From: an uncultured Candidatus Saccharibacteria bacterium
Lineage (GTDB): Bacteria > Patescibacteriota > Minisyncoccia > UBA6257 > 2-01-FULL-56-20
Direction of reading: 5' to 3'
Length of the DNA stretch: 64,000 bases
Assembly (NCBI GenBank): GCA_964365185.1
Contig: CAYIOP010000001.1
Span: 180,579-244,578 of the forward strand
Both the position numbers and the translations under genes were made by a program. Position 1 is the first letter of the stretch; each line of letters begins with the position of its first letter. Shown piece after piece: positions 619 to 63,245 of this stretch. The notes beneath the pieces are model-generated. The model had not been told where the DNA came from. It saw only the letters and a program-made list of their open reading frames with translations, and did not search any database.

Positions 619-800
619 TATACGAATAATACTGATAATGGTAATCCTTCGACTCCGCTCAGGATGTTTTATTCTCCGAGAGAATAAAACAAAAAACGAC
701 CCTACCTAAGGACCGTTTACGAGGACCACTATTGGCTATTCCCTAGTGGCTAATGGCTTCTGCCATACTCCTCGGCGGGGCTTATTCCTTTTCCTTTGGA
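619..800 (-). promoter_or_regulatory. Long 5' leader of rplJ (possible L10-leader autoregulatory region)
   Basis: ~180 nt with no convincing ORF lies upstream of the rplJ start. Imperfect inverted repeats are present (e.g. TTGGCTATTCCCTAGTGGCTAATGG). Assignment rests on position only. Confidence 0.25.
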
Positions 801-975
801 TGCCCGTTGTCTTAGGATTGGTTTTAGTATAGCAGGTGGAGAGGGGGTGTCAAGAGTTATTTTTTCTTGTAAAAATTCAACAAAACTGGTAGTTTTATGC
901 ATCAGGCTAGGAGTATTTCTGACCTTGAAATGTCTTGCACTTCGACAATTGAATATGAAAGGAGATAGAAATTCC

Positions 976-1713
976 ATGAAAAATGGATTGTTAAATCTTG
1001 CTATTTGCATATCTGGAGGCGGGACAACAATGCGGGAAATCATGCGAGCGTGCAGAGACCACCGCTTGCTCCATGTCAATCCTGCTCTCGTAATTTCAAG
1101 TAGACCAGATGCCGGTGGAATTGAAAAGGCAAAAGGAGAAGGCATTCTAGAAAAAGATATTGTAGTTCTTGTTCGAAAACAGTTTGAGAACTCCGATGCT
1201 TTTAGTGAAGCTATTCTTAAAGAATGTCGATTTCGCGAAGTGGATTTAATCGCTCAATGCGGTTTTCTTCCACTTATGCCTTCAAATGTGATCGCTACAT
1301 ATCGCTCAAAAATTTTTAATCAACACCCAGGACCTCTTGATCAAAATCGTCTTGGTTTCGGCGGTAAAGGTATGTATGGACAGAGAGTTCATCATGCCGT
1401 AGTTTATTTCTCTAAACGAGTTGGTCGTCCATTCCGAACAGAGGCAACTGTCCATAGGGTGACTGATGAGGTGGATGGCGGCGCTATTCTTGGTATTCGA
1501 CCGGTTGAGATAACGGACGGAGATAACGCCCAAAAACTCGCGGCGCGAGTTTTGCCATACGAACATGGTCTTGTTATTGAGACGATATTACAATTCTCGG
1601 AGTTTGGTGGGCCTCACGAAATACACCGTGAGAGTCCGCTTATTAAGGAGGGCGAAGAGTCCTTGCTAAATGAAGCAAAAAAATCTGGAATCGAAACTTT
1701 TCCGAATGGATGA
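976..1713 (+). CDS. purN: Phosphoribosylglycinamide formyltransferase (PurN-like formyltransferase)
   Basis: ISGGGT N-terminus, HPGPLD (the 'HPSLLP'-type motif) and GxTVHxVxxxxDxGxIL are present. An SD AAAGGAGA lies 10 nt upstream of ATG 976. An in-frame ATG at 955 is an alternative start (ORF track 796..1713). Confidence 0.75.
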   Translation: MKNGLLNLAICISGGGTTMREIMRACRDHRLLHVNPALVISSRPDAGGIEKAKGEGILEKDIVVLVRKQFENSDAFSEAILKECRFREVDLIAQCGFLPLMPSNVIATYRSKIFNQHPGPLDQNRLGFGGKGMYGQRVHHAVVYFSKRVGRPFRTEATVHRVTDEVDGGAILGIRPVEITDGDNAQKLAARVLPYEHGLVIETILQFSEFGGPHEIHRESPLIKEGEESLLNEAKKSGIETFPNG

Positions 1714-1743
1714 ATCATGAAAGCGAATCCGCGTTATTTTTTA

Positions 1744-1790
1744 AAAAAATCGGCCCCACATCCTCTATGGATGGGGGCCTTTTTGTTGTT
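1744..1790. terminator. Bidirectional intrinsic terminator between convergent purN and purL
   Basis: Hairpin GGCCCC-a-CATCC/tctat/GGATG-GGGGCC is flanked by an A-run on the 5' side and TTTTTGTTGTT on the 3' side. Confidence 0.65.
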
Positions 1791-1798
1791 GAATTTAA

Positions 1799-4700
1799 CT
1801 AATGTTCCAGGCACCACTTTTTGGCGTTTTGGAACATTCGTAACCAAGGAGAAACAGTGAGATTCTTTCTAAAATCTTCTGGCATCCATGGCCACTGCCA
1901 CAAAAGAAAGCAACGTTCGGGATGAGGCATCATTGCAAGATGGCGACCGTCTGGAGAGCAAAGAGCAGTTAATCCAAGCTGCGAACCATTAGGATTATAT
2001 GGATACTCTTCAGTGGGAACTCCTTCGGGATCGACATACATAAGGGGAGCAAGCGACTCGCGTTTAATTATTTCGACTAGCGAAGGATCTGGAAAGAATA
2101 ATCTCCCCTCGCCGTGAGCAACCCAAATCCCAAGCACTGAACCCTTCATGCCGCTGAAAAATATCGATGGGCTTTCAGTAACTTGTACTTCTGCCCAGCG
2201 AGATTCAAAGCGACACGAAAAATTACGAACGAAACGGGGCTGCTTAATCTCAGAGAGGCCTCGCCACGGTACCCAACCCAAAAGTGCCATCAGTTGACAT
2301 CCATTACAGACGCCGAGTGAAAAAGTGTCTAATCGATTATAAAATCGATCGAACATCTCTTGGAGTTCTGGATTAAACCGAATTACACCACCCCAACCCT
2401 TACCGCTGTCGAAGACATCCATAAATGAGAATCCTCCGGGAAAAACTAGACCCCGAAATTCATCTAGAGTTGATCTTTTAGAAAGAAGATCGCTCATAGT
2501 GATATCCCAGGGCTCAAAACCAGCAGTAAAAAATGCCACCGCCATTTCTCTATCGCCGTTTGTGCCTTCTTCGCGAAGAATCGCCACGCGGGGGCGAATC
2601 GACGAGAAAGAAACATTCGGCGTATCCGTTGATGGATAAAATGATAAATGGTACTTTGGATTTTTGAGTTGGTTGTGCGTTTTAACCTCGGATTCCGTTG
2701 TTGAAGTACTTGTTTGGAGAAGTTCTAGTCGAGAACTGGTTTCTTCCCACCATGATCTAAGCTGTTTGAGTGGTTTTGAGAAAAAGATTCCTTCTTGCGC
2801 TCTCCATCGCACAACGAATGACTGGACAGTCATAGTGGTTCCGAGACACTGAAATGGAACATGGTAAAGACTAAGGATAGCATTTATCACGGCTTCTTTT
2901 TCCGGCAAATATTCAAACACAAAACCAAGTTCTTCAGAGAAGAGTTCGGCAAAGACATCTGAATTTTTGCTAATGGAGATGTTGGCTCCGCAATTAGCGG
3001 CTAAACACATCTCGATTACGCTAGTGATAAGTCCACCATCGCTGCGGTCATGAAGCGCGGTAATATAATTGCCATCAATTAGTTCTTGAACTGCTCTAAA
3101 AGCACTTCCAAGAAAGGAGGGATTGTCCACATCAGGAGATTCATTTCCAACTTGACCGTATGCTTGGGCTAGACTTGAACCACCGAGACGATTCTTACCG
3201 CTACCAAGATCAATGAAACCAATTAAGCTGTCGCCGGCTCGTTTGAAATCCGGGGTCATGACTTTTGTGATATTCGGCACAGGAGCGTACCCCAAAATTA
3301 CAAGTTCGCCAGGAGATTTTACAATCGTTCCATTTACGGTTGCTGCCATAGAAAGGCTGTCTTTTCCTCCATCGGCGGCAATACCGAGCGCGATCATAAA
3401 ATCACGCAGAGCAGTGGCGGCGTCGTAGAGTAAAGCGCCTTCTCCAGATAACTTTGCTGGCCACATCCAGTTCACTCGGCAACGAACATCTTTGAGTTCA
3501 CTAATTTTGGCTGACGCTAAATTAGTAAGCATTTCGCCGACTGCCATACGAGCACCGGCTGCTGGATTTAAAAGCATTTTAATTGGTTGTTCACCAATTG
3601 CCGTTGCTGCTCCGGTTGTGCCGAAATAACCGTCGGCAGTAACTGAAACATCGGCCACTGGTATCTGCGCTGGTCCGCAGCACTGCTGACGAGCAACAAG
3701 ACCAGTAACACTTCGATCAACTTTGTGAACAAGAAATCCCTTTGAGCCAACCTGTGGAAGACGGAATACGTTGCGAAGCGCATCTTCGATTTTCAGATCT
3801 GGTGGTAATGAGAGCGAACTAAATTGTCGTGACTGTCGCTCTAACTCAAAAGTTTTTTGAGGTATCCCTGTTAGGATATCCTCAAGATTAAGGCAGACAG
3901 GAGTTGCTCCGTCTTGTGAGTCGATGACGGTGATGTGTCCGTCGCCAGTGATATCACCTACGACTTCGCAATTCACGCGTTCGCGCTCACAGATTGTTTT
4001 AAACTCTTCAAGCCGTGTTGGTTGAATGAGAAGACCATACCCTTCTTGATATTCAGCGCTCCAAATTTCAAGAACAGACAAAGTTCTGTCGCCAAGGATG
4101 ATTTTGCGAATATCAATCCTTCCACCGGCTGGTTCTAGTAATTCCGTGAGGACATTACTTGGACCTCCGGCGCCTTGATCGTGAATACTTTCAATTGGAT
4201 TTTTATCTCCCCTTTCGATGCATGCTCGGATAACACGGTTAGCTCGATTTTCCATTTCGGCATTGCCTCTTTGAACCGAATTGAAATCAAGATCTGCGGT
4301 GTTTTCGCCTTGCATCATACTTGAAGCACTGCCACCCCCAATTCCAATTCTATAAGCTGGCCCGCCGATACGGATAATAAGCATTCCTGTTTCCGGTCGA
4401 TTCTTTTCAGAATGAATCGCTTGGATGCGACCCACGCCGCCAGTGTAGAGAACTGGTTTACGGAATTCTCGCCGTTCGCCGTTTACAACTTGACCGAAGG
4501 TTCGTGTAAAACCGCCAATGAGCGGTTCGCCGAATCGGTTGCCGTAGTCGGAGATTCCATTACTCCCTTCTATAAGAATCTGGGCTGGTGACGCGTATTG
4601 CTGCGTCTCTTCGCCGCCGATATTCTCACCCGGGATTTGATAATCAGGAAAAAACAGATTACCAACACAGTAACCGGCTAATCCAGCGAATGGCAGAGCA

Positions 4701-5614
4701 CCACGACCTGGAGCAGAATTATCTCTAATTCTTCCTCCAGAACCAGTTTCTGCGCCAGGATAAGGAGCAACTAATGTTGGATGATTGTGCGTTTCAGCTG
4801 TACAGGCGATGTGCCAAAATCCTTTCTGTTGAATAAGTCGGGCGGGATAACCGGGACTTTCCGCTATAAAAGCGGTGATGTTATGTCCACGAATTACTCC
4901 GGCGTTATCGCGAAAGGCAAGTACGCTGTTTGAATCGTTAAGAACTTTAAGAGGTGTTCTAACAATATCAAAAAGCGAGTGCGGCATTTCTGACCCATCG
5001 ATGACAAGTTTGCCTTTGAAAAACCAGTGTCGACTATGTTCGCTGTTGGCATTGCCAATTTGGAAAATCTCAACGTCAGTGGGATTTTTCTTTCGACGAA
5101 GAAAAATGCGGGTGTAGTGATCAATATCCCAGCTATCCATTCCTAAACCAAGATCAATGTTGAGATCTCGAAGCGCATCTGCGCCACGCTCGAGTATTGG
5201 AATGACTCGCATTGATTTAGGTGTAATGGTTTGAGTAAATGTTGAAATTGACTCTAAATAAACAACTTGAGTCATTCGATCTAAGTGAGAAGCAATAATA
5301 ATTTCTTCAGTTATCAAATTTGATAACTGATAGCGCAGCGACCGTTCAATTCTTGTGACCTTGGTAAGTCCCATAGATTGACAGATCGCAACAGCATTAG
5401 ATGAAAAAGGAGTTTCAACACTTAGTCGTGGTCCAATCTCCAGAATGCGGCCTTTCTCAAAGAATGGCTTGAACCTAGTTTTTTCTGGCTCAAATGTTTC
5501 GGCTATCAGCCATCTGATGCGTTCTGTTTCTTGTTCGGTGAGTGGCGCCGAGGTTTCGATATAGAGACATTGCTCGATTGCGCTATCCACCTCTCGGTAG
5601 ATTTTTATAAGCAT
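1799..5614 (-). CDS. purL: Phosphoribosylformylglycinamidine synthase, large single-chain form (FGAM synthetase with a C-terminal glutamine amidotransferase)
   Basis: 1271 aa. The AIR-synthase-related repeat domains and a C-terminal GATase with GVCNGCQ are present. An SD AAGGAAGG lies 6 nt upstream of the ATG. Confidence 0.9.
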   Translation of the reverse strand: MLIKIYREVDSAIEQCLYIETSAPLTEQETERIRWLIAETFEPEKTRFKPFFEKGRILEIGPRLSVETPFSSNAVAICQSMGLTKVTRIERSLRYQLSNLITEEIIIASHLDRMTQVVYLESISTFTQTITPKSMRVIPILERGADALRDLNIDLGLGMDSWDIDHYTRIFLRRKKNPTDVEIFQIGNANSEHSRHWFFKGKLVIDGSEMPHSLFDIVRTPLKVLNDSNSVLAFRDNAGVIRGHNITAFIAESPGYPARLIQQKGFWHIACTAETHNHPTLVAPYPGAETGSGGRIRDNSAPGRGALPFAGLAGYCVGNLFFPDYQIPGENIGGEETQQYASPAQILIEGSNGISDYGNRFGEPLIGGFTRTFGQVVNGERREFRKPVLYTGGVGRIQAIHSEKNRPETGMLIIRIGGPAYRIGIGGGSASSMMQGENTADLDFNSVQRGNAEMENRANRVIRACIERGDKNPIESIHDQGAGGPSNVLTELLEPAGGRIDIRKIILGDRTLSVLEIWSAEYQEGYGLLIQPTRLEEFKTICERERVNCEVVGDITGDGHITVIDSQDGATPVCLNLEDILTGIPQKTFELERQSRQFSSLSLPPDLKIEDALRNVFRLPQVGSKGFLVHKVDRSVTGLVARQQCCGPAQIPVADVSVTADGYFGTTGAATAIGEQPIKMLLNPAAGARMAVGEMLTNLASAKISELKDVRCRVNWMWPAKLSGEGALLYDAATALRDFMIALGIAADGGKDSLSMAATVNGTIVKSPGELVILGYAPVPNITKVMTPDFKRAGDSLIGFIDLGSGKNRLGGSSLAQAYGQVGNESPDVDNPSFLGSAFRAVQELIDGNYITALHDRSDGGLITSVIEMCLAANCGANISISKNSDVFAELFSEELGFVFEYLPEKEAVINAILSLYHVPFQCLGTTMTVQSFVVRWRAQEGIFFSKPLKQLRSWWEETSSRLELLQTSTSTTESEVKTHNQLKNPKYHLSFYPSTDTPNVSFSSIRPRVAILREEGTNGDREMAVAFFTAGFEPWDITMSDLLSKRSTLDEFRGLVFPGGFSFMDVFDSGKGWGGVIRFNPELQEMFDRFYNRLDTFSLGVCNGCQLMALLGWVPWRGLSEIKQPRFVRNFSCRFESRWAEVQVTESPSIFFSGMKGSVLGIWVAHGEGRLFFPDPSLVEIIKRESLAPLMYVDPEGVPTEEYPYNPNGSQLGLTALCSPDGRHLAMMPHPERCFLLWQWPWMPEDFRKNLTVSPWLRMFQNAKKWCLEH

Positions 5615-5796
5615 AACGGCCTTCCTTTCGTCCGTTTATTTATTGTTTTCAAGTTACATAATAACAAAGAGCTAAAGTTCTAGGTGCATCCTATCAATAA
5701 AGGCAGAAGATGTAAAATTAGGGTTCTTGAAGAAAGATTCTTTTTTGATTCGATATAAAAAAACAGAGTGGCACTAATTTTTAGCGCTCACTCTGC

Positions 5797-6321
5797 TTAT
5801 GGGTTGGATAATACGAGAAAGATGGACAGGCATATGGCCGCGTAGACGCCAGCAATGAAATCGTCCAGCAAAACTCCGTGGGCGTTTTTCATTCTATCAA
5901 AGAAACGTGTTGGGGGAATTTTGATAATATCAAAGAAGCGAAACAGAACGAAGATGAGCGGTATAACTTTCCAGTTATAATCTACCTTAAAGATGATTAG
6001 TGGAAGACAGGATACTAGCATGCCCAACACTTCGTCGATGACAATTTGGTTTTGATCTTTTGTTTTGGCTTGACCTCGCCAATCAATTCTTGTCCCTAGT
6101 TCTTTCTCTGTTATTGGTATACTCCAAAGCCCTATAAGGTAGATCAAAATCAGAATGACAAAAAAATAGAGGATGCTGCTGTGGGAGAAAAATAACGCAA
6201 GAAGACAAAACGGAATGCTGAAAAAACTTCCGTAGGTTCCTGCCATGCTTTGTAGTCCAATAGGCCGTATTAAACCAGAGTAAAACCAGGTCGCGATTAA
6301 AACTGCTGTTCTATTTTTCAA
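5797..6321 (-). CDS. pgpA: Phosphatidylglycerophosphatase A
   Basis: PgpA-family motifs match: ATWFYSGLIRP..AGTYGSFFSIPF, IVIDEVLGML, FRFFDIIKIPPTRFFD and HGVLLDDFIAGV. Confidence 0.75.
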   Translation of the reverse strand: MKNRTAVLIATWFYSGLIRPIGLQSMAGTYGSFFSIPFCLLALFFSHSSILYFFVILILIYLIGLWSIPITEKELGTRIDWRGQAKTKDQNQIVIDEVLGMLVSCLPLIIFKVDYNWKVIPLIFVLFRFFDIIKIPPTRFFDRMKNAHGVLLDDFIAGVYAAICLSIFLVLSNP

Positions 6322-6393
6322 AGAGCACCTCCAAAGTTATTAAGAACTGCTAGTAAGGTATCTTAGGAAATTTGAAATGTCAAAGAAGAGGGT

Positions 6394-6469
6394 TGGGCGG
6401 GTCCGGCAGGAGTCGAACCTGCAGTTCTGGTTTTGGAGACCAGTGGTTTGCCATTAACCGACGGACCCG
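6394..6469 (-). tRNA. tRNA-Trp (anticodon CCA)
   Basis: Hand-folded cloverleaf with acceptor CGGGTCC/GGACCCG, anticodon loop CU-CCA-AA, T-loop GGTTCGACTCC and an encoded CCA. Confidence 0.85.
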
Positions 6470-6514
6470 TTTTGGAGACCCGCCATAGGCGGGCAGGCCT
6501 CGCTAATTATCACT

Positions 6515-6546
6515 TTCCTCCGGAGGAGGATCCGCCTTTGGCGGAA
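6515..6546 (+). repeat. Dispersed triple-palindrome repeat, copy A (TCCTCCGGAGGAGGATCCGCCTTTGGCGGAA)
   Basis: One of 5 near-identical copies in this window (see findings). Confidence 0.7.
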
Positions 6547-6609
6547 ACTAAGCTCCCCTATCCATGCGCATGTAACATGTATCACGCAACATGTAACAAG
6601 AGAATTTTA

Positions 6610-6651
6610 CTATTTTCTGCTCTCCTTATGTAGGGTGTGTTTTCTACACCC
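6610..6651 (-). other. Degenerate tandem duplicate of the rpmG 3' end (encodes ...[13 protein letters not shown])
   Basis: Reverse-complement translation matches the last 12 codons of rpmG, with many synonymous differences. It lies ~65 nt downstream of the real stop. Confidence 0.5.
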
Positions 6652-6713
6652 CCTCGACTCATTTCATTCGCTCGGGGCAAGCAATAGTTTACCCAGAGAT
6701 TGAAGTTGTATTT

Positions 6714-6881
6714 CTACTTTTTACTTTCCTTATGTAGGGTATGCTTGCGGCACCAGCTACAATACTTTTTGAGTTCTATTTTTTTCTCAACTTTCTTTTT
6801 GTTTTTATCGGCATAAATAGCCCGTTTGCACGTGGCGCATCTTAAACGTATTAATCTTTCGGCGCGTTTGATTTTGGCCAT
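6714..6881 (-). CDS. rpmG: 50S ribosomal protein L33 (zinc-ribbon form)
   Basis: Hand translation gives [55 protein letters not shown], with CxxC...CxxC. It is missing from the ORF track (55 aa). It sits upstream of tRNA-Trp, as in many bacteria. Confidence 0.8.
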
Positions 6882-6979
6882 GGTAAATCATGAAACATGT
6901 AGCATGTAACATGTAGCCAATATAGTAATCCAAAAATCGAAAGGAGTCAATTTGGGGGTTAAATTCTGTGTTTCTTTAT

Positions 6980-7008
6980 TTGCCTCTGCTGTCTAAATAC
7001 TGTAAATT
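6980..7008 (+). promoter_or_regulatory. Candidate sigma70-type promoter for tRNA-Thr(GGU)
   Basis: TTGCCT-17 nt-TGnTAAATT (extended -10), ~15 nt upstream of the tRNA 5' end. Confidence 0.3.
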
Positions 7009-7023
7009 GAATATTGCCCAAAA

Positions 7024-7095
7024 GCCGTTGTAGTTCAGTGGCAGAACGTTTTCTTGGTAAGAAAAAGGTCGGGAGTTCGATTCTCCCCAACGGCT
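7024..7095 (+). tRNA. tRNA-Thr (anticodon GGU)
   Basis: GCCGTTG acceptor, D-arm AGTTCAGTGGCAGAAC, anticodon loop TT-GGT-AA, T-arm GGTTCGATTCC. CCA is not encoded. Confidence 0.8.
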
Positions 7096-7107
7096 CAAAA
7101 GTGCTTG

Positions 7108-7150
7108 CAAATAAAAACCCCGGCACCTTGGTTGGTGACGGGGGTTGGGG
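7108..7150. terminator. Hairpin between tRNA-Thr and purB (possible bidirectional terminator)
   Basis: CCCCGGCACC/ttggtt/GGTGACGGGGG with flanking A/T runs. Confidence 0.35.
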
Positions 7151-7151
7151 T

Positions 7152-8513
7152 TTAACTGTTTGAATCCGCAGGTTTGGCAGAATTCTTAAAGATATATTCG
7201 ATTCCTTCTTTGATGTAGGTAATGGGATCGAAACATTTTTTTAAGGCATCCGCGCCAAGAATATCGAGGGCAGTTGCGGATTTTGTTTCGGAAATTGATT
7301 CACTGCAAAGTGAGCGGAAGAGATCGCCGTCATTGTTCTCGCTAACTTTAAATGAAAGGCGTTGGAGATAGATGTAGGCATCGTCGTAACTTATTCCGGC
7401 ACCCATCAGGGCGTTACGAACTTTCTGACTAGCCCAGGTGCCGTGAGTGGCTCCCAGGTTTTGTTTCATCCTTTCTGGAAAAACCTCGAGATTCTGAACT
7501 AGCCACTTCATTTTGTTTGCCATGTAGTGGACTAGGCCAGTGGCAGTCGGAAACCCTTCTCTTTCAACGTTGGATTGGGAAATGTCTCGGCATTCTGGAG
7601 TAGCAATGTTTTCGAAGGCAGCACCAGTATGACCTCTTACTTCTATCGCCATACCCATCAGCCGTTCAGTTAAAATAGGATTACGTTTGTGGGCCATAGC
7701 AGAAGAGCCGCGCTGTCTTGGACTTCTGGGCTCTCTGAGTTCGCCGACATCGCTTCTCATCATTTCCCAAAAAGTTCTGGCAATTTGTTCAATACTGGCG
7801 GCAGCAATGGCTAACACGCTCATTAAAGCGGCGTGTCGATCGCGCTGAAGGATCTGGGTTTCGGCGGGAGCTTGTTTAAGTCCAAGGATTGCCAAAGCGT
7901 CATCCCCTATGCGGGGATCCATACCGGCGAAATTACCGACGGCTCCGGAGATTTTAGCTTCGCCTAACTCTTCGATCATGATCCGATCTACTCGATTTAT
8001 ACTCCTTTTAATAGATTCAGAGAAAACAAGCAGGAGATGACCGAAGGTGTCGGGTTCGGCGAACTGGCCGTGGGTGCGAGCAATCATCAAGGTCCATTGA
8101 TGTTCGACGGCTTTTTGTCGCAGAGCTTGATAGAGTTCGAATAAACTCTGACGAATTAAAGCCATAGCTTCGCGGAGCATGAGCACAAGGGCCGGATCTT
8201 CGATATCAAAGGAAGTAAGATATCTATGAAATTCTTCTTTGCAGTGACCCCATCCATTCGCCACTAGATATTCTTGAACCGAAACAACGAAGGCAATGAA
8301 GTCGTGATTATATTCGGCCTCAAGCTCATCGATCCGATCGGGATTGATGACTATGCCGGAACTGATGATATCTTGATAAATACCTCTATCAAGATTGCCG
8401 GCTTTAAAACGCGCTTCGAGATAGGCCTTTTCAACTTCAAGCCAATACTCGAATTTAGTTTTGAGATCCAGCCAGAGCTTTTTCATATCTGGCAGAGTGT
8501 AACGTTTCAGCAT
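7152..8513 (-). CDS. purB: Adenylosuccinate lyase
   Basis: 453 aa with the fumarate-lyase signature GSSAMAHKRNP. Confidence 0.9.
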   Translation of the reverse strand: MLKRYTLPDMKKLWLDLKTKFEYWLEVEKAYLEARFKAGNLDRGIYQDIISSGIVINPDRIDELEAEYNHDFIAFVVSVQEYLVANGWGHCKEEFHRYLTSFDIEDPALVLMLREAMALIRQSLFELYQALRQKAVEHQWTLMIARTHGQFAEPDTFGHLLLVFSESIKRSINRVDRIMIEELGEAKISGAVGNFAGMDPRIGDDALAILGLKQAPAETQILQRDRHAALMSVLAIAAASIEQIARTFWEMMRSDVGELREPRSPRQRGSSAMAHKRNPILTERLMGMAIEVRGHTGAAFENIATPECRDISQSNVEREGFPTATGLVHYMANKMKWLVQNLEVFPERMKQNLGATHGTWASQKVRNALMGAGISYDDAYIYLQRLSFKVSENNDGDLFRSLCSESISETKSATALDILGADALKKCFDPITYIKEGIEYIFKNSAKPADSNS

Positions 8514-8614
8514 AAAATACCTCCTGCTGAAGTTAGGGTTGCATTTCGTTTATGGTTTACAAGTTACCGAGAGATATAGTAATCCTGTGAATAATTTTTG
8601 TCCAGTTTCTAATG

Positions 8615-8686
8615 AGCCAGCGGTCGGATTTGAACCGACGACCTACTGTTTACAAAACAGTTGCTCTGCCACTGAGCTACGCTGGC
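8615..8686 (-). tRNA. tRNA-Thr (anticodon UGU)
   Basis: Reverse complement is GCCAGCGTAGCTCAGTGGCAGAGC...ACTGT-TTTGTAA-ACAGT...GGTTCAAATCC...CGCTGGC. Confidence 0.8.
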
Positions 8687-15815: not shown

Positions 15816-15950
15816 TTAAATAGAAAGTAGAATTTAGAAAATAGAAAATAGGATTTAGAAAAGAAAAAGTAGAAAATAAAAAATAGGATTTAGAAAATAG
15901 TAAGTAGGAAGTATTGGGTATTGGGTATTAGGATTATTATAGCATTACTT
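15816..15950. repeat. AT-rich low-complexity spacer of TAGAAAATAG/GGATTTAG motifs
   Basis: Tandem, imperfect TAGAAAATAGGATTTAGAAAA units. The same motif family recurs in many intergenic spacers in this window. Confidence 0.5.
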
Positions 15951-20550: not shown

Positions 20551-20605
20551 AAATTTAGATAGAATTTAGAAAATAGAAAGTAGAAAATGGGTTGGGTTAA
20601 TAAAT

Positions 20606-20986: not shown

Positions 20987-21036
20987 AAAATTTAGAAGTT
21001 AGAAAGTAGAAAATAGAAAATAAGAATTGATAATGA

Positions 21037-24898: not shown

Positions 24899-24943
24899 AT
24901 TTAAATAGAATTTAGGATTTAGGATATAAAATCGATTTGGGAA

Positions 24944-26701: not shown

Positions 26702-26748
26702 GTTTTTAGGATATAGAATAGAGGATTTAGAATATAGGATTATTAGAT

Positions 26749-27303
26749 TTAGGATTTTTTCATTTTGGAAATTTCGAGCAAGTTGCCTTTTGAGCCAGGA
26801 ACAGCGCCTCTTACGAAAAGAAGATTATTTTCTTTATCAATTTTAGCCACTTTTAAATTAATCACCGTAACCCGATCGGTTCCCATGTGGCCGGCCATTT
26901 TTCTTCCGGGAACAACTCTTTGGAAAGCAGTGCTACCAATAGAGCCGGGGGCGCGATGACGATTTTTCTGGCCATGAGTTTTAGGCCCGCCTCCAAAACC
27001 GTGACGCTTCACGACTCCTTGAAATCCCCTGCCTTTTGATATGCCGCTCACTCTTACTAAATCGCCTTCGGAAAAAGCGGAAACATTGATTGAATCCTGA
27101 AATTTTAAGTCCAAATTCATCCTTTCAGTTCTGAATTCTTTTTTGTTTTTGCCCAAAGACAACTGAACGGCTTCGTAATTATGTTTATCTTTGGTTTTAA
27201 TTATGGAGACAAGATTGGGCTCGGCTTTAATAACCGTAACCGGAGTCACTTTGTCGCCTTCCCAGATTTGATCCATTTTTATTTTTTTGCCGAGAATAAA
27301 CAT
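26749..27303 (-). CDS. rplC: 50S ribosomal protein L3
   Basis: L3 family sequence. Repeat copy B lies 20 nt upstream of its ATG. Confidence 0.9.
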   Translation of the reverse strand: MFILGKKIKMDQIWEGDKVTPVTVIKAEPNLVSIIKTKDKHNYEAVQLSLGKNKKEFRTERMNLDLKFQDSINVSAFSEGDLVRVSGISKGRGFQGVVKRHGFGGGPKTHGQKNRHRAPGSIGSTAFQRVVPGRKMAGHMGTDRVTVINLKVAKIDKENNLLFVRGAVPGSKGNLLEISKMKKS

Positions 27304-27321: not shown

Positions 27322-27355
27322 ATTCCGCCGGAGGCGGATCCGCTTTTGGCGGACA
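27322..27355 (+). repeat. Dispersed triple-palindrome repeat, copy B
   Basis: ATTCCGCCGGAGGCGGATCCGCTTTTGGCGGACA. Confidence 0.7.
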
Positions 27356-29274: not shown

Positions 29275-29281
29275 TTAATTA

Positions 29282-29316
29282 GGTGTTAGGTTATAGGTGT
29301 TAGGTTATAGGATGAT
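29282..29316. repeat. Tandem 14-mer AGGTGTTAGGTTAT x ~2.3
   Basis: AGGTGTTAGGTTATAGGTGTTAGGTTATAGG immediately upstream of the tuf start. Confidence 0.6.
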
Positions 29317-32012: not shown

Positions 32013-32492
32013 TTATCTATTGGGACGATTGGCGAAGTGAGCAAAAGCGCGGTTGGCTTCGGCCATTCTGTGCGTGTCGAGTTTTTTCTTAATGGCCGCC
32101 CCTTCGTTTTTAGAGGCCGCAATAATTTCATTGGCTAGTTTATCTATCATGGAGATGCCTTTTTTAGACCTAGCGGACTGAATCAACCAGCGGCAAGCCA
32201 GAATAAATTTTCTCTCTGGAGCCACTTCTTGAGGAACTTGATAATTGGCGCCTCCCACTCTTTTTGAAACTACCTCTAGTAAGGGCGAAGTGTTAGCGAG
32301 GGCTTTTTCAAAAATCGTAAGCGGATCTACTTTGGTTTCTTTTTCTATTTTTTCTAAAGCCGAGTAAAAAACTTTGGCAGCGGTGCTTTTTTTGCCGTTC
32401 CAAGTTAAATAATTAATAAATCTTCCCAAATCAACGCGGTGGTATTTGAAATCGGGTTTATAGTGTTTTTTGTAAATTCTTTTTTTACGCAT
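32013..32492 (-). CDS. rpsG: 30S ribosomal protein S7
   Basis: S7 family sequence. Confidence 0.9.
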   Translation of the reverse strand: MRKKRIYKKHYKPDFKYHRVDLGRFINYLTWNGKKSTAAKVFYSALEKIEKETKVDPLTIFEKALANTSPLLEVVSKRVGGANYQVPQEVAPERKFILACRWLIQSARSKKGISMIDKLANEIIAASKNEGAAIKKKLDTHRMAEANRAFAHFANRPNR

Positions 32493-32581
32493 GTTCAGTA
32501 TTAAGTATCAAATATCATGTATCATGTATCATGTATCAAATTAGTTTTTAATTCTTGACACCTGATACCTGACACGTGACA

Positions 32582-32998
32582 CTATTTGGCTTTGGGGCGC
32601 TTAGCTCCGTACTTAGATCGTTGTTGTTTCCGGCCTTCGACACCACCGGTATCTAAAATTCCTCGCACAACGTGGTAACGCACACCTGGCAAGTCCTTAA
32701 CTCTGCCGCCTCGAATTAAAACCATCGAATGTTCTTGAAGATTGTGGCCTTCGCCGGGGATGTAAGCGGTTACTTCTGAACCGTTAGTTAAACGAATCCG
32801 GCAAACTTTTCTTAAAGCCGAATTTGGTTTTTTAGGAGTCGTGGTAAAAACCTTAAGACAAACTCCCCTTTTAAATGGAGAGGAGGAATCAAGGGGTCGA
32901 TTTTTTAAGGTATTAAAATAGAAAGACAAAGCCGGCGATTTGCTTTTAAACTTAATGGATTTTCTTCCTTTTTTAATTAATTGGTGAGTGGTGGGCAT
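32582..32998 (-). CDS. rpsL: 30S ribosomal protein S12
   Basis: S12 family sequence ([11 protein letters not shown]...). Repeat copy C lies 14 nt upstream of its ATG. Confidence 0.95.
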
Positions 32999-33011: not shown

Positions 33012-33045
33012 ATCCGCCGGAGGCGGATCCGCCTTTGGTGGAAGG
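33012..33045 (+). repeat. Dispersed triple-palindrome repeat, copy C
   Basis: ATCCGCCGGAGGCGGATCCGCCTTTGGTGGAAGG. Confidence 0.7.
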
Positions 33046-42339: not shown

Positions 42340-42373
42340 TTCCTCCGGAAGAGGATCCTCCTTTGGCGGAAGG
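42340..42373 (+). repeat. Dispersed triple-palindrome repeat, copy D
   Basis: TTCCTCCGGAAGAGGATCCTCCTTTGGCGGAAGG. Confidence 0.7.
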
Positions 42374-42432
42374 TGAGAGGTGATAGAAGAGAGAAGATAG
42401 AATATTGAGATACTAATGAAATTAAAAAAATA

Positions 42433-48264: not shown

Positions 48265-51041
48265 ATGAGTGAACTTGGACCGAGATACGATCACAAAGAA
48301 ATTGAAGATAAGATTTATAAACTCTGGGAGAAATCCGGGTATTTCTCCGCCGAAGGCGGATCCGCCTCTGGCGGAAATCCTGATAAGCGCAAACCCTATT
48401 CAATAATTATGCCGCCGAATAATGCGAACGGCTCGCTGCATTTGGGGCACGCGGTAGGACTGACTTTGCAGGATATTTTAATTCGATACTGGCGGATGCA
48501 AGGTCGAAAAACGCTTTGGCTGCCGGGGGCGGATCACGCGGGATTTGAAACCCAGGTGGTGTATGACAAAAAACTGGATAAGGAAGGACGGAATAGATTT
48601 ACCATTCCCCGCGAGGAACTTTGGAGAGAAATTTGGGATTTTACACAGACCAACAAAAAATTGATGCAGGAGCAGACCAAGAAACTCGGAGCTTCTTGTG
48701 ATTGGTCGCGCGAGCGATTTACGCTGGACCCGGAAATTATAAAAGTCGTTTATGAGACCTTTGAACAGTTATATAAAGACGGCTTGGCTTACCGCGATTT
48801 AAAAGTGGTGAACTGGTGCCCTAAACATCGCACCGCGCTTTCGGATTTGGAAGTAAAATTTGTGGAGCAAGAAGACCCGCTTTATTTTATAAAATACGGA
48901 CCGCTTACGGTGGCGACAGTGCGTCCAGAGACGAAATTTGGCGACACAGGGCTCGCGGTTAATCCTAAAGACGCGCGATATAAAAAATATATAGGTAAGG
49001 AAATAGAGGCAACCGGAGTTTTGGGACCGCTTAAATTTAAAGTGATTGCGGATGAGGCGGTGGACCTAAAATTTGGCACGGGAGTGGTTAAAGTGACACC
49101 AGCACATGACCAGACGGACTTTGAAATTTGGCAAAGGCATAAAGATGAAATCCCGGGACCAAAGCAGATTATTGATGAGTTGGGGCGACTGATGACTAGT
49201 AGCGGACTCGGCGAGTACGGAGGGTTGAAAGTTATGGAAGCGCGGGAAAAGGTGGTGGAAGCAATGAAGCAAATTGGAATTTTAGAAAAAGTAGACCCGA
49301 ACTATAAACACCAAATCGCGACTTGTTATAAGTGTGGCAACACGCTTGAGCCATTGCCTAAGATGCAGTGGTTTATTCGTATGACTACTCAAGCTAAAAG
49401 CGAAAAGCTAAAAGCGAAAAGTAATGGAAAGTCGCTTAGGGATTTGGCGGTGGAGGCGGTTAAAAGCGGAAGGGTAAAATTTACGCCGAAGCGGGCGGAG
49501 AAAGTTTTCATGCACTGGATGAAAAATATTCGGGATTGGAACATATCGCGGCAGATTGTTTGGGGAATTCGGATTCCGGCGTGGTTTTGCGTTAGTTGTG
49601 GGAAAGAGAAAATTAATCCTCTTATAAAATCCAAGTGGTTTTTGGTGCGACACGGAGAAACGGATTGGAATGTTGAGGGAAGGGCAAATGGTCATACGGA
49701 TATACCGCTGAATAAAATAGGATTTCAACAAGCTAATATGGCCGCTGAAAAATTAAAAGGTGAAAATATTGATTTGGTTCTATGCTCAGATCTTAAACGA
49801 GCTTCTCAAACCGCAGAGATTATAGCTAAAAGATTAGGTGTTGAATTAATAATAGATAAAGATCTGAGAGAAAGAAACATGGGCGTTGTTGAAGGAATGT
49901 TAAGAGAGGAATGGAAACAAAAACATCCAAATATGTCAGAAAGTTTAGAAAGTAGGCCGCTAGACGGAGAAAGCTTAGGTGAATTACAAGATAGAATATT
50001 TAAAACTTTTAATAAGCACAAATCACAGCATAAACATAAAAATATTGTCCTAGTAACTCATGGCGGCTCAATTAGATCATTGTTAGGCAAACTCAGAAAT
50101 ATGAAATTTGAGGATTGGGCTCATTTACAGTCAAAAAATACCGAAATTTTTAAATTTGATATTAGCGAAGATTGTGGAAAATGTGGTTTAGATTTATACG
50201 AGCAAGACCCGGATGTTTTTGATACTTGGTTTTCGTCGGGGCAGTGGCCGTTCGCGACTCTAATGAGTCGTGAAAGTTCAAAGTTAAAAGCGAAAAGCGA
50301 AAAGTTGGGAAAGGACGATTTCAAAAATTTCTATCCGACGGATGTGATGGAAACGGGCTATGACATTTTGTTTTTCTGGGTGGCGAGGATGATTATGCTG
50401 GGGATTTACCGAACCGGCAAAGTGCCTTTTAAAAACGTCTACTTGCACGGACTAGTGCGCGACAAAGACCGGCAGAAGATGTCTAATCCAAAGGCAATGT
50501 GATTGACCCGCTGGGCGTAGCCGAGACCTACGGCACGGACGCGGTTAGAATGGCGCTCGTTGTTGGCAATACGCCCGGCAATGACATTGTGATTTCAGAG
50601 GACAAAATCCGCGGGTATCGAAATTTCGCCACGAAAATTTGGAACGTAGCCAGATTTGTGATGATGAACTCGCCCTCCAAAATTTTGCGGAGCAAAACTT
50701 GGGAGGGTAAACCTTCTTTCACTACGCAAGATAAAAAAGATTTAGCGGCGCTTAAGAAAATAAAAACACAAGTGGCTAACCATATTGAAAAATTCGAATT
50801 TCATTTGGCGAGTGAAAAAGCGTACCACTATTTCTGGCATACTTTGGCTGATAAAATAATCGAAGAGACCAAGCCTAGATTGAACAGGAAGGATTCGAAA
50901 GATGCGGCAGTGGCTTATTTTAAACTCGAGACCGTTTTGCTTGAGTCGTTAAAGATACTGCACCCTTTTATGCCGTATGTGACTGAAGAGATTTGGCAGA
51001 AATTTAGGCCGGGAACAATATTGATGATAGAAAAATACTAA
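48265..51041 (+). CDS. valS: Valyl-tRNA synthetase carrying a nested histidine-phosphatase domain and a -1 frameshift in the KMSKS codons
   Basis: Colinear with E. coli ValS: PPNNANGSLHLGHA, TLWLPGADHAGFETQVV, CP1 TVRPETKFGDTGLAVNP / GTGVVKVTPAHDQTDFEIWQRH, VFDTWFSSGQWPF, QKMSNP|KGNVIDPL, GYRNFATKIWNVARFVMMN. Reading frame 1 ends at 50502; the frame continues as 50488..51041. Confidence 0.85.
48344..48377 (+). repeat. Dispersed triple-palindrome repeat, copy E (in-frame inside valS, encoding AEGGSASGGN)
   Basis: TCTCCGCCGAAGGCGGATCCGCCTCTGGCGGAAAT. Confidence 0.65.
49642..50169 (+). other. Histidine phosphatase (phosphoglycerate-mutase-like, RHG motif) domain inserted in the ValS zinc knuckle
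   Basis: LVRHGETDWN...LVLCSDLKRASQTAEII...LVTHGGSIRSLL, ~176 aa. It is flanked by CVSCG (upstream) and CGKCG (downstream). Confidence 0.7.
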
Positions 51042-56832: not shown

Positions 56833-56877
56833 AAAAATAGGTTAGAGGTTTTAGGTGATAGGTTAATAGTTAATTGA

Positions 56878-60956: not shown

Positions 60957-63188
60957 TTAGACAGATTCAAGCCGAAGAGAAACAATCTTAGAGGTTCCGT
61001 CCGCGTTTAAGGTAACGCCGTAGAGAATATTAGCCACCTCCATAGTGGCGCGATTATGGGTAATGATAATGAATTGGGTTTTTTTGGAGAAATCTTTAAG
61101 CATCGCGGAGAAGCGTCGAGCGTTTCTTTCATCTAGCGCGGCGTCAATTTCATCTAGAACTAAAAATGGAGGGGGGCTCACCGAAATCATCGAAAAAAGC
61201 GCGGCAATGCCAACTAAGCTTCTTTCTCCGCCGGATAAAATTTCCAACGAAGAAAGCCGTTTCTTGGGCAAGCTCAGGTCAATCTCGAGTCCTGGTTCTT
61301 CTTCTTCGGGTTCTATTTCAATTGAATTTTCGTTCGAATCATTTGATTCAATTTCTATTAATTCGGAGGACTCTGATTTTTGACGCTTCAAATTTGCCCT
61401 CGAAGAAGACGATTTTGAAGTTAATTTTAGCTTGGCGTGGCCACCACTGAACATCGACCGGAAAAAATTATTGAATTCCTTATTAATATCATGGAGGGCA
61501 ATGTTAAATTCGGTTTTAATTTTACTCGATAATTCACTGATTAAATCCTTTAGGTCTTCCTTGGCTTTTTCGGTATCAACTAGTTCGGTTTTAAGAAATT
61601 CGTATCGACTTTCTGTTTCTTGCGCCTCTTTAAGAATGGCATGGTCGATTTCGCCAATAACGGCTAAATCACCCCTTAATTTAAAAAGTCTCTGCTCCCA
61701 TTCCCGGAGTTCTGGGCTTTCCAGACCTTGTTTTAACTCTTTTAAAGTGCCAGAATTGATATTATCACCAAATTCCCTCGGATTGCGGCCAATTTGAATG
61801 ATTTGCCTTTTTAAATCCTCTAATCTAATTTCTAGCCGCTCTTTTTCAAAAGCAATTTTTTGATTTTTAAGATCCCACTCCTCGATTTTACTTTTGATAT
61901 TTTCTACAGAAAGCACAGCGGCTTTAAAGGATTCATAAAATTCGCCTTGGCTTTTTTCAAGAGTTTTTTCTTTATCTCTTAGATTTTCGATTTGGGTTTT
62001 AATTTCTTTTAAATCACTCTCAACTTTCGTAAATTGCGATTTTAAATTCGGCGAGAATGAGTTGCTGGACGATGAATCAGGAGCGGCAGAGTATGAATCA
62101 ATTTCTTTAATCAATTCCGAAACGATGACACGCGCATCATCCAGATTATTTTTTAAAATATTTTCAAGGCGAACTCTAATTTTTTTTATGAAGTTAAAGA
62201 GATTTGAGGCAGCCGGCAAAGACGGTTCCATTTTTCTTTCGGTCATCTCGAGCTGGGCTTCAAAACGGCTGATATCTTTCTCAAATTTGATTTGGGTTTG
62301 CAAAAGCTCGTCAATCTGAATTTTTATTTTTTTAAGCTCGGCTCTTTCTTTGGGCTCACCAGCTTCGATTTCTTTTTGGTTTCTTTCAAGTTCAATTTTT
62401 TTGGCTTCGAGAGTTTTATATTCCGTATGGTGAGCGCTGATTTCTTCGGCAACGGTTTTAATTTTGCTTTCAAGCCAGTTAGTTTGGGTGCCAAAGAAAA
62501 GATTCTCCACTTCTCTAAGTTCTGCCTCAAGAATCTCCCGTTTCTCCCAACGACCAGTTTGACGCCGCAGCGAACGCAGATGGGGCAAAATTTCTTCGAT
62601 TAAGGCCCTAACTTTTTCTAAATTAATTTGAGTGTTTTTTAACTGGTTTTCAGCTCGAGTTTTTTTAATTTGAAACTCCCTGAGCCCCAACATCTCCTCA
62701 ATCATCTCCCGCCTTTCTTTGGGCGTGGCCCGAATAAAAACATCACTATTACCTTGACTCACGATCGTTAAGCCCTTAGTGCCAAGTTTGGCTTTGGCAA
62801 AAAAATCAATTAAATCCTTGAGGCGAACCTCGGATTTATTGATAAAATATTGGCTGGTTCCATCTCTAGCGACTTGGCGCAAAATATTAATCTCGGCAGC
62901 GTCAATCGGGAAAAAATCGTTTTTATTTTCAAAGCTTAAGCTGGCTTGAGCTAAACTCATCTTGGGTTTCTCGGGAGTGCCGGCAAAAATAAGGTCTTCG
63001 GCCTTGCTGCCTCTTAAGTTTTTAGCTTCTCTTTCTCCGAGAAGCCAACGGATGGCATCCACAACATTAGATTTGCCAGATCCATTTGGGCCGACAATAG
63101 CAGTAATGCCTTCTGGAAAATCCAAGACCACTTTTTGGGCAAAGGATTTAAAACCGTTTAATTCTAGATTTTTTAGGAGGTGGGGCAT
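60957..63188 (-). CDS. smc: SMC-family chromosome-partition ATPase (short, 743 aa)
   Basis: N-terminal Walker A GPNGSGKSN. C-terminal ABC signature LSGGERSLV and Walker B LVLDEIDAALD. Coiled-coil-like middle region. It lies adjacent to rnc, as in many bacteria. Confidence 0.7.
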   Translation of the reverse strand: MPHLLKNLELNGFKSFAQKVVLDFPEGITAIVGPNGSGKSNVVDAIRWLLGEREAKNLRGSKAEDLIFAGTPEKPKMSLAQASLSFENKNDFFPIDAAEINILRQVARDGTSQYFINKSEVRLKDLIDFFAKAKLGTKGLTIVSQGNSDVFIRATPKERREMIEEMLGLREFQIKKTRAENQLKNTQINLEKVRALIEEILPHLRSLRRQTGRWEKREILEAELREVENLFFGTQTNWLESKIKTVAEEISAHHTEYKTLEAKKIELERNQKEIEAGEPKERAELKKIKIQIDELLQTQIKFEKDISRFEAQLEMTERKMEPSLPAASNLFNFIKKIRVRLENILKNNLDDARVIVSELIKEIDSYSAAPDSSSSNSFSPNLKSQFTKVESDLKEIKTQIENLRDKEKTLEKSQGEFYESFKAAVLSVENIKSKIEEWDLKNQKIAFEKERLEIRLEDLKRQIIQIGRNPREFGDNINSGTLKELKQGLESPELREWEQRLFKLRGDLAVIGEIDHAILKEAQETESRYEFLKTELVDTEKAKEDLKDLISELSSKIKTEFNIALHDINKEFNNFFRSMFSGGHAKLKLTSKSSSSRANLKRQKSESSELIEIESNDSNENSIEIEPEEEEPGLEIDLSLPKKRLSSLEILSGGERSLVGIAALFSMISVSPPPFLVLDEIDAALDERNARRFSAMLKDFSKKTQFIIITHNRATMEVANILYGVTLNADGTSKIVSLRLESV

Positions 63189-63199
63189 TGAAGGGGGCA

Positions 63200-63245
63200 G
63201 GTTATAGGTTATAGGTTATAGGTTATAGGTTATAGGTTATAGGTT
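63200..63245. repeat. Heptanucleotide tandem repeat (GGTTATA) x 6-7
   Basis: AGGTTATAGGTTATAGGTTATAGGTTATAGGTTATAGGTTATAGGTTTC lies between the rnc stop and the smc start. Confidence 0.85.

Follow-up and report, generated by a model that had tools for sequence, protein, structure and literature searches.

A 3′ remnant of a second rpmG copy and period-7 leader arrays at the rpmG–tRNA-Trp locus of an uncultured groundwater Patescibacteria bacterium

The analysis of a 64-kb window of DNA from an uncultured, ultra-small groundwater bacterium of the Patescibacteria (the window being the whole stretch analysed, positions 180,579 to 244,578 of contig CAYIOP010000001.1) revealed a block of sequence wedged between an intact rpmG, the gene for ribosomal protein L33, and an intact tRNA-Trp gene. 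The block consists of a 3′ remnant of rpmG, a leader-like array of 7-nt repeats (A′) and the 5′ half of a second tRNA-Trp. We give about an even chance to the reading that two things are superimposed here: period-7 leader arrays which lack a Shine-Dalgarno (SD) sequence, and a fossil block derived from a second, long-diverged rpmG–tRNA-Trp allele. The coding strand of the locus is the minus strand, to which all coordinates written in descending order refer. Gene-wise comparisons were made with 72 genes of the window, and about 90 rpmG loci were compared; loci of relatives are labelled L081, L083, L087 and L088.

The rpmG remnant and the truncated tRNA-Trp

The intact rpmG gene (6881..6714) encodes a 55-aa L33 of the four-Cys zinc type (Pfam PF00471 Ribosomal_L33, E=2e-15). 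The nearest L33, from Paceibacterota, is 82% identical and that of L087 is 78% identical. The product was not on record in an exact-protein lookup, probably because the gene had never been called. The stop codon is followed by a 31-nt spacer, read directly from the sequence (6713..6683), and by a GC-rich motif of 33 nt, H (GCTTGCCCCGAGC-GAATGAAATGA-GTCGAGGGG; 6682..6650). This motif abuts the remnant (6651..6610), which comprises the last 13 codons and the stop codon of the second allele.

A preliminary description, made from the letters of the window, had proposed a duplicate of the rpmG 3′ end at 6610-6651 on the minus strand, differing from the gene mostly at synonymous sites. Both statements were confirmed. 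The segment translates to 13 residues resembling the rpmG C-terminus and aligns with the gene without gaps at 32/42 nt and an offset of 104 nt, a score reached by none of 500 mononucleotide shuffles. Eight synonymous differences and a single nonsynonymous one were counted in the 39 nt starting at the last Cys codon; the remnant retains its stop codon and is free of indels. The two copies are 24% divergent and are separated by 62-64 nt of unrelated sequence. Among the 72 genes only rpmG is followed by a copy of its 3′ end (runner-up 25/42). The remnant lacks a start codon and has an in-frame TGA 6 codons upstream, and so is not an open reading frame (ORF). We take it to be non-functional transcribed spacer.

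The remnant matches its own gene at 30/39 positions, and the rpmG genes of Desulfobacterales and of Saccharibacteria likewise at 30/39 each. As it is equidistant from own and foreign rpmG, the similarity is what any two genes for this conserved peptide share. The remnant descends from another rpmG lineage, which diverged under purifying selection.

An rpmG remnant was found in one other species among the loci compared, a Candidatus Jorgensenbacteria represented by seven assemblies (locus L001), whose L33 is 70% identical. There the rpmG stop codon is followed by 9 nt, an H-like motif CCTGAGTCGAATCGAAGG, 8 nt and the sequence TGCCAG...AAGTAG encoding CQKHTLHKETKK*. This remnant 1, located 35 nt from the gene, shows 7 synonymous and 2 nonsynonymous differences, and is followed by remnant 2, a second, shortened local copy. 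In both species the remnant begins at the same Cys codon and has an H-family motif upstream. H-like motifs occur just twice in the 64-kb window, yet they abut the remnant in both species.

An obvious alternative is that slippage or template switching at the H hairpin duplicated the 3′ end of rpmG locally in tandem, with neutral decay of the downstream copy afterwards; the synonymous excess would then be a product of chance and transition bias. The position of H at the junction is consistent with this, as are the heptad arrays described below, which show that slippage is common in the genome, and remnant 2 of L001, which is clearly a local copy of remnant 1. We simulated this null as an exact local copy, the gene accepting synonymous changes alone and the copy accepting all. 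The mean was 5.3-6.3 nonsynonymous among 9 differences, as compared with the 1 observed, giving P <= 0.002 for the window and P <= 0.017 for remnant 1 of L001 over a range of transition and AT biases, including kappa = 6. Synonymous sites look saturated while nonsynonymous sites are nearly untouched, and the absence of indels and the kept stop codon also argue against decay. This null is statistically rejected, and overall local duplication appears improbable.

An assembly artefact, in which two strain variants of the rpmG 3′ end were joined in one contig, was considered too: the source is a metagenome-assembled genome, and the independent contig has about 5x coverage according to its record name. 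That contig (L218), from a separate per-sample assembly of Hainich groundwater, agrees with the window at all of 6,362 nt across the rpmG locus, which speaks against an artefact. The 62 nt of unrelated sequence between copies of such divergence, and the same architecture in seven assemblies of another species, leave this explanation with a near-negligible probability.

The distal part of the block is a truncated older tRNA-Trp (6557..6470; GGGAGCTTAGTT..AAGTGATAAT..GGTCTCCAAAAC), extending from the 5′ end through the anticodon loop and matching L088 at 12/12 positions at the 5′ end. It represents the type carried intact by L081 and L088. The D-arm and the anticodon loop are present and the 3′ half is missing; neither ARAGORN nor Rfam called it. 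The intact tRNA-Trp (CCA) follows directly (6469..6394; ARAGORN, Rfam 64.9 bits) and is of a sequence type unlike that of the relatives. A 12-mer of the anticodon loop is duplicated, at 6469-6480 and 6430-6441. A related arrangement is present at L087:1444-1629, where an intact tRNA-Trp is nested in the remains of an older one, the same old tRNA as in the window, with the old 5′ half and 3′ end (21/22 identical to L088) on its two sides; a canonical H unit is found in the old 5′ half, immediately ahead of the anticodon loop. The presence of a truncated older tRNA-Trp beside the rpmG remnant fits replacement at the locus.

Three further candidates were rejected. A diversity-generating retroelement was discarded given that 4/10 differences are at A of the downstream copy and no reverse transcriptase domain was found in neighbouring ORFs. 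Programmed -1 frameshifting or readthrough of L33 would meet intervening TGA stops (1 in the window, 2 in L001), and TGA is a normal stop in the window, used by 7/72 genes. The "TAT TGC" preceding H does not represent old Tyr-Cys codons: its GC is part of the H consensus, and a hand count showed that the frame is wrong. We also observed that both species have the remnant in the -1 frame, that rpmG ends with AAA AAG/AAA and a stop (6714-6722; L001:3160-3171) and that only TGA stops lie between gene and remnant; the -1 frame was judged a coincidence, roughly 1 in 100 by hand estimate.

Period-7 leaders at rpmG and across the window

The preliminary description had also pointed out identical 13-mers on both sides of rpmG and additional ACATGT hexamers nearby, and had described them as spaced palindromes, ACATGT-N1-ACATGT, resembling a dimeric operator. 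The 13-mers CATGTAACATGTA are indeed exact, at 6570-6582 and 6906-6918, and 4/6 of the ACATGT hexamers of the window fall at the rpmG locus. The repeats are where they were placed, while their description as spaced palindromes has to be abandoned: Tandem Repeats Finder (TRF) shows period-7 tandem arrays with the unit TACATGY, and ACATGT hexamers occur because TACATG heptads are next to a following T. Array A (6918..6882) reads CTACATG TTACATG CTACATG TTTCATG ATTTACC followed by ATG, includes one 13-mer and was called with period 7 (6896-6917) and period 14. Array A′ (6598..6562) reads TTACATG TTGCGTG ATACATG TTACATG CGCATGG, includes the other 13-mer and was called with period 7 (6569-6598). 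The wider repeat, 6569-6595 versus 6889-6915, is 85% identical over 27 nt (23/27, P<0.001). With no more than one mismatch, ACATGTNACATGT has 3 matches in 64 kb against 0.02 expected, all of them in arrays A and A′.

A promoter-like site, TTGACT and TACTAT with a 17-nt spacer (6950..6922), is the lone sigma-70-like match in 6300-7200, and TTGACT-17-TAnnAT also precedes rpmG in L081, L083, L087 and L088. Array A is downstream of this site and so constitutes the 5′ untranslated region (5′UTR) of rpmG. Its final recognisable CATG heptad stops 7 nt upstream of the ATG, and the leader has no SD. The rpmG leader of L087 (TTGCATG TTATATG TTACATG TTTCGTG ATTCAAT ATG) aligns with array A without gaps at 29/40 positions, with a core of 25/28 by our own count on the alignment. 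That of L083 (TTTCAAG TTTCACG TTTCATG ATTCACG) aligns in part. The conserved feature of orthologous rpmG leaders is the heptad register TTnCAYG.

Comparison with relatives thus retains the heptad leader and not the ACATGT palindrome, of which L087 has some copies and L083 none. The operator interpretation is further disfavoured by the location of array A, which begins after the -10 box TACTAT and fills the 5′UTR, neither overlapping nor flanking the promoter hexamers. All matches to the operator motif in the 64-kb window are within arrays A and A′, the array at rpsG having ACATGA instead. The suggestion of a selected RNA structure was not supported either, the folds of the leader (z = -1.1) and of A′ (z = -1.0) being non-significant. 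Folding of 6470-6720 gave z = -3.1, mainly from GC-rich hairpin insertions according to our reading of the fold.

The leader-like array A′ is part of the transcribed spacer that precedes the old tRNA-Trp. It resembles the rpmG leader of L087 by eye, at about 24/31 (an eye count made with no tool). Leader-like sequence was found before tRNA-Trp in the window (P<0.001), in L087 (P=0.04) and in L088 (P=0.003).

Heptad leaders without SD are a general feature of the source genome. In the intergenic DNA of the window, TRF detected dozens more arrays of period 7 or 14. Intergenic autocorrelation has peaks at lags 7, 14 and 21 (0.315, 0.300 and 0.295 versus about 0.27), and coding DNA has no such peaks. 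Reading the upstream sequences ourselves, we found heptad arrays that stop within a few nt of the ATG at about a dozen genes, each locus with its own unit (TACATGY, TTCTAnn, ACCTAnn, GTGTCAn and others). G-poor heptads TTCTAnn, TCCTAAA, ACCTATA and CACCTAA end at the starts of tuf, of genes in the ribosomal-protein cluster and of an SMC-like gene. An SD core, even one of 4 nt, is present in just 5 of the 72 genes, and G makes up 13% of the 30 nt preceding start codons. G-poor period-7 (also 14 or 21) arrays occupy many intergenic spacers up to the start codon, for example at 15818-15907, 20559-20588, 21000-21022, 24906-24925, 26708-26769, 29279-29311, 56837-56865 and 63199-63245, the last being a perfect (AGGTTAT)x6.7 ahead of the SMC-like gene. 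A third CATG-type array, of GATACAT repeats, is located directly before rpsG (32490..32538, minus strand). In the rpsL-rpsG spacer (32490-32582) the 7-nt register is kept throughout, and the complementary arrays (GTGTCAn)x4 and (CATGATA)x4 form a predicted long hairpin (-27.1 kcal/mol, z = -4.9).

The heptads are likely to serve SD-independent translation initiation or to be the binding site of a factor reading the leader. An SD-poor genome with 7-nt repeats before its starts, and with an rpmG leader conserved across species, would offer a concrete feature for SD-independent initiation in the phylum.

A more specific possibility is that A and A′ form a functional cis-regulatory heptad array, bound by a DNA- or RNA-binding factor common to rpmG, tRNA-Trp and rpsG, which would co-regulate genes of the translation apparatus. 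This is near the operator idea of the preliminary description, with direct heptads in place of palindromes. Between the window and L087, conservation of the rpmG leader is close to that of the coding sequence, leader-like sequence precedes tRNA-Trp in three loci, a third CATG-type array precedes rpsG, and A and A′ are 85% identical while the adjacent remnant is saturated at synonymous sites. Against this, differing heptads precede many unrelated genes, so periodicity alone is generic, and the ACATGT palindrome is not conserved. The analysis identified no candidate binding protein and predicted no structure for the array; the tRNA-Trp following A′ is a dead copy, and the remnant is left unexplained. 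We therefore consider shared regulation rather doubtful.

Inserted units H and D and the origin of the block

The 11-nt loop of H is a variant of the GAGCGAAGCGA loop form, with G-to-A and C-to-T changes. Scanning of metagenomes for the H core found at least 120 contigs (L098-L217) of 39-72% GC, with unrelated flanks and an invariant core. The unit is 24-33 nt long and has sharp boundaries, GCY-TGCCCCGAGC-GNA-GTCGAGGGG, information content being about 0 outside GCY..GGGG. Copies of H have no target-site duplication. Its stem is not a Watson-Crick palindrome, as tandem G.A pairs are needed. In some contigs (L146, L177, L149) H forms 24-nt tandem arrays. Within UvrB it makes an in-frame 10-residue insertion relative to solved structures, and it is also in frame in ORFs which, from their sequence, we take to be AlaRS, ValRS, GyrB, DnaG and LysRS. 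The ValRS of L115 seems to hold two H copies. Example sites are L151:3604-3625, L115:2983-3004, L164:6262-6283, L193, L101 and L136. Neither Rfam nor a literature search with H sequence strings returned a description of H.

Two further sequences in the window are related to H. The hairpin GCCTGCCCGCCTATGGCGGG (6498..6479) is inside the tRNA remnant, at the place where L087 has a canonical H, and is probably derived from it. A second H-like unit, CCTGAGCGGAGTCGAAGG (646-663, minus strand), lies between an L10-leader-like region and the start codon of rplJ, a position which ruled it out as an island boundary; L087 has no H-like unit at the corresponding place.

A different unit, D, is a 30-nt double hairpin TCCGCCAAAGGCGGATCCTCCTCCGGAGGA also located in the tRNA remnant (6545..6516). 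Its 17-nt core was matched nine times in the window, at six sites (0.16 expected), and all five sites that were read show D. The unit CCGCCAAAGGCGG ATCC GCCTCCGGCGG is present at 6516-6545, 27325-27352, 33014-33041, about 42353-42380 and 48347-48374; the sixth core match (62213-62229) is weak, with 3 mismatches. D is found before rplC, before rpsL, in the tRNA-Trp remnant and in frame (SAEGGSASGGN) in an ORF for a class I aminoacyl-tRNA synthetase. Residues 459-637 of this synthetase ORF (48265-50502) form a histidine phosphatase domain (His_Phos_1), which lies either between the synthetase segments or after them, and the next ORF overlaps the TGA stop of the synthetase ORF. H and D units may be a general, overlooked source of short insertions in conserved proteins.

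How could the putative fossil block have been formed? The resident genes may have been replaced by, or joined to, either DNA of a related lineage or an old paralogue, with the block left over. One junction would be an illegitimate join at the GC-rich H motif, as the position of the junction at an inserted motif of this kind suggests. A plausible route would be homology-facilitated illegitimate recombination after DNA uptake, which would bring in a whole gene with a short piece of foreign flanking sequence and leave the resident copy truncated. The preliminary description had proposed in situ replacement of an older rpmG by homologous recombination. The coding-like remnant and its origin from another rpmG lineage support replacement in outline, whereas one junction suggests an illegitimate join. 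If the replacement interpretation is correct, diverged alleles can take the place of a ribosomal protein gene that is essential and single-copy, together with the tRNA gene beside it, and leave datable scars; this bears on the share of recombination and gene transfer in shaping Patescibacteria genomes.

Several observations weigh against a long-diverged allele left behind by random recombination. With 39 nt the remnant is too short for any donor to be identified, and the flanks of gene and remnant, including the 31-nt spacer, have no significant similarity to the spacers of relatives. Eye alignments to those spacers, tried as evidence of flank orthology, were likewise not significant, and we make no claim as to which copy is native. 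The 23/27 identity of A′ and A needs an extra assumption if the block is long-diverged, namely conversion, convergence through slippage or a shared functional constraint. That the same Cys codon and the -1 frame recur in two species might point to a site-specific process, as opposed to illegitimate recombination at random. No flank duplication was found at 101 other H copies, so H is not a general generator of duplications. Finally, a PurB search for closer relatives returned the same organism as the sole close match, with the next PurB 62% identical, and with no close relative the events at the locus cannot be dated or polarised.

A site-specific process would account for some of these observations. 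A mobile element targeting the last 13 rpmG codons could have brought its own 3′ end, so that integration kept the gene intact and displaced the original end, the element being lost later except for about 64 nt including H; a similar element with its own tRNA-Trp would have hit the anticodon loop of tRNA-Trp. Such an integration agrees with the coding-like divergence between gene and remnant, with remnants starting from the same Cys codon after an H-family motif in two unrelated species, with two successive remnants in L001, and with the nested tRNA-Trp of L087 and the duplicated anticodon-loop core GGTCTCCAAAAC. On the other hand, Pfam scans of neighbouring ORFs detected no integrase, other mobile-element or reverse transcriptase domain (two ORFs had no match), and the gaps of 64 nt in the window and 35 nt in L001 require three near-total deletions that spared both repeats. 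Integrases which target tRNA genes usually duplicate the 3′ part of the tRNA, and the remnant here is a 5′ half. No rpmG was seen beside H in 120 other H loci, nor was H found to be associated with tRNAs elsewhere. An integration scar is consequently unlikely in our estimation.

A different role can be imagined for H itself. We tentatively suggest, as a minor possibility, that H is an undescribed and very widespread insertion unit of intergenic regions, RNA genes and, in frame, essential proteins, which at intolerant sites survives only with a rescuing second gene copy, and that heptad leaders are an SD-independent initiation signal read by a protein with 7-nt periodicity. The intolerant sites would be, again only as a speculative proposal, the zinc knuckle of L33 and the anticodon stem of tRNA-Trp. 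If true, rescue would explain the presence of H at the boundary of coding-like remnants in two unrelated Patescibacteria.

The surroundings of the locus were also inspected. The order conserved in relatives is dnaE / tRNA-Thr(TGT), tRNA-Thr(GGT), rpmG, tRNA-Trp, rplJ. The window departs from it: tRNA-Thr (GGT) is inverted (7024..7096, plus strand), purB is inserted between the two tRNA-Thr genes (7152-8686) and pgpA-purL-purN sits between tRNA-Trp and rplJ (796-6321). The inverted tRNA-Thr and the inserted purB, pgpA, purL and purN indicate that the locus is rearrangement-prone. Neighbouring ORFs gave Pfam matches to PgpA, adenylosuccinate lyase, formyl transferase, L10 and DNA polymerase III alpha, and a permissive Rfam search of 5500-8000 found two tRNAs and nothing else. 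In contrast to most genes of the window, purB has a strong SD (AGGAGG). In L087 purD adjoins rpmG. Upstream of rpmG in L001, a tRNA-Thr(GGT) with no ARAGORN call is recognisable by its 3′ half alone (L001:2905-2950) and possibly contains an intron; Patescibacteria tRNAs with group I introns have been described (PMC13011429).

Relation to known repeats and recombination scars

The closest described phenomenon to the heptad leaders is the TAACTGA heptamer direct repeats of marine Beggiatoaceae, some Cyanobacteria and Bacteroidetes (MacGregor 2015, PMC4679880), for which a role in translation was proposed with S1, Csp and CsrA as candidate binders (PMC4679880). In both cases tandem 7-nt repeats lie a few nt before starts that have no canonical ribosome-binding site, and ribosomal protein operons are included. 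The differences are one fixed heptamer there and locus-specific units here, in a Patescibacteria host; TAACTGA itself occurs in the window as isolated single copies and is never repeated. Intergenic tandem heptamers in several sequence families, in a genome of about 41% GC, are also known as the short tandemly repeated heptamers (STRR) of heterocystous cyanobacteria. Unit sequences and phylum differ, and the arrays described here are directly at start codons, one of them being conserved across species.

For short inserted units, the Rickettsia palindromic elements (RPE), short elements inserted in frame into genes, provide a parallel. Like them, H and D are sharp-edged and are found in intergenic DNA, in an RNA gene remnant and in frame in conserved proteins. 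They are much shorter than RPE, and H, with its invariant core on contigs of 39-72% GC, is not a Watson-Crick palindrome.

The rpmG remnant is reminiscent of the E. coli icd gene, where integration of e14 or phage 21 leaves a functional gene followed by its displaced own 3′ end with mostly synonymous differences. The synonymous character of the icd differences reflects the fact that each end belonged to a functional lineage of its own. The rpmG remnant is likewise a displaced 3′ end differing mainly at synonymous sites. Between the icd copies there is a whole prophage with an integrase, whereas here there are 62 nt and no integrase domain was found nearby.

Homology-facilitated illegitimate recombination of naturally transformable bacteria combines one homologous anchor with one illegitimate join, for which a short, GC-rich microhomology is often used. 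By analogy, it would yield the combination proposed above for rpmG, of an intact new gene, a short stretch of foreign flank and a resident copy cut short; it does not predict that such an event should recur at one and the same codon in two species.

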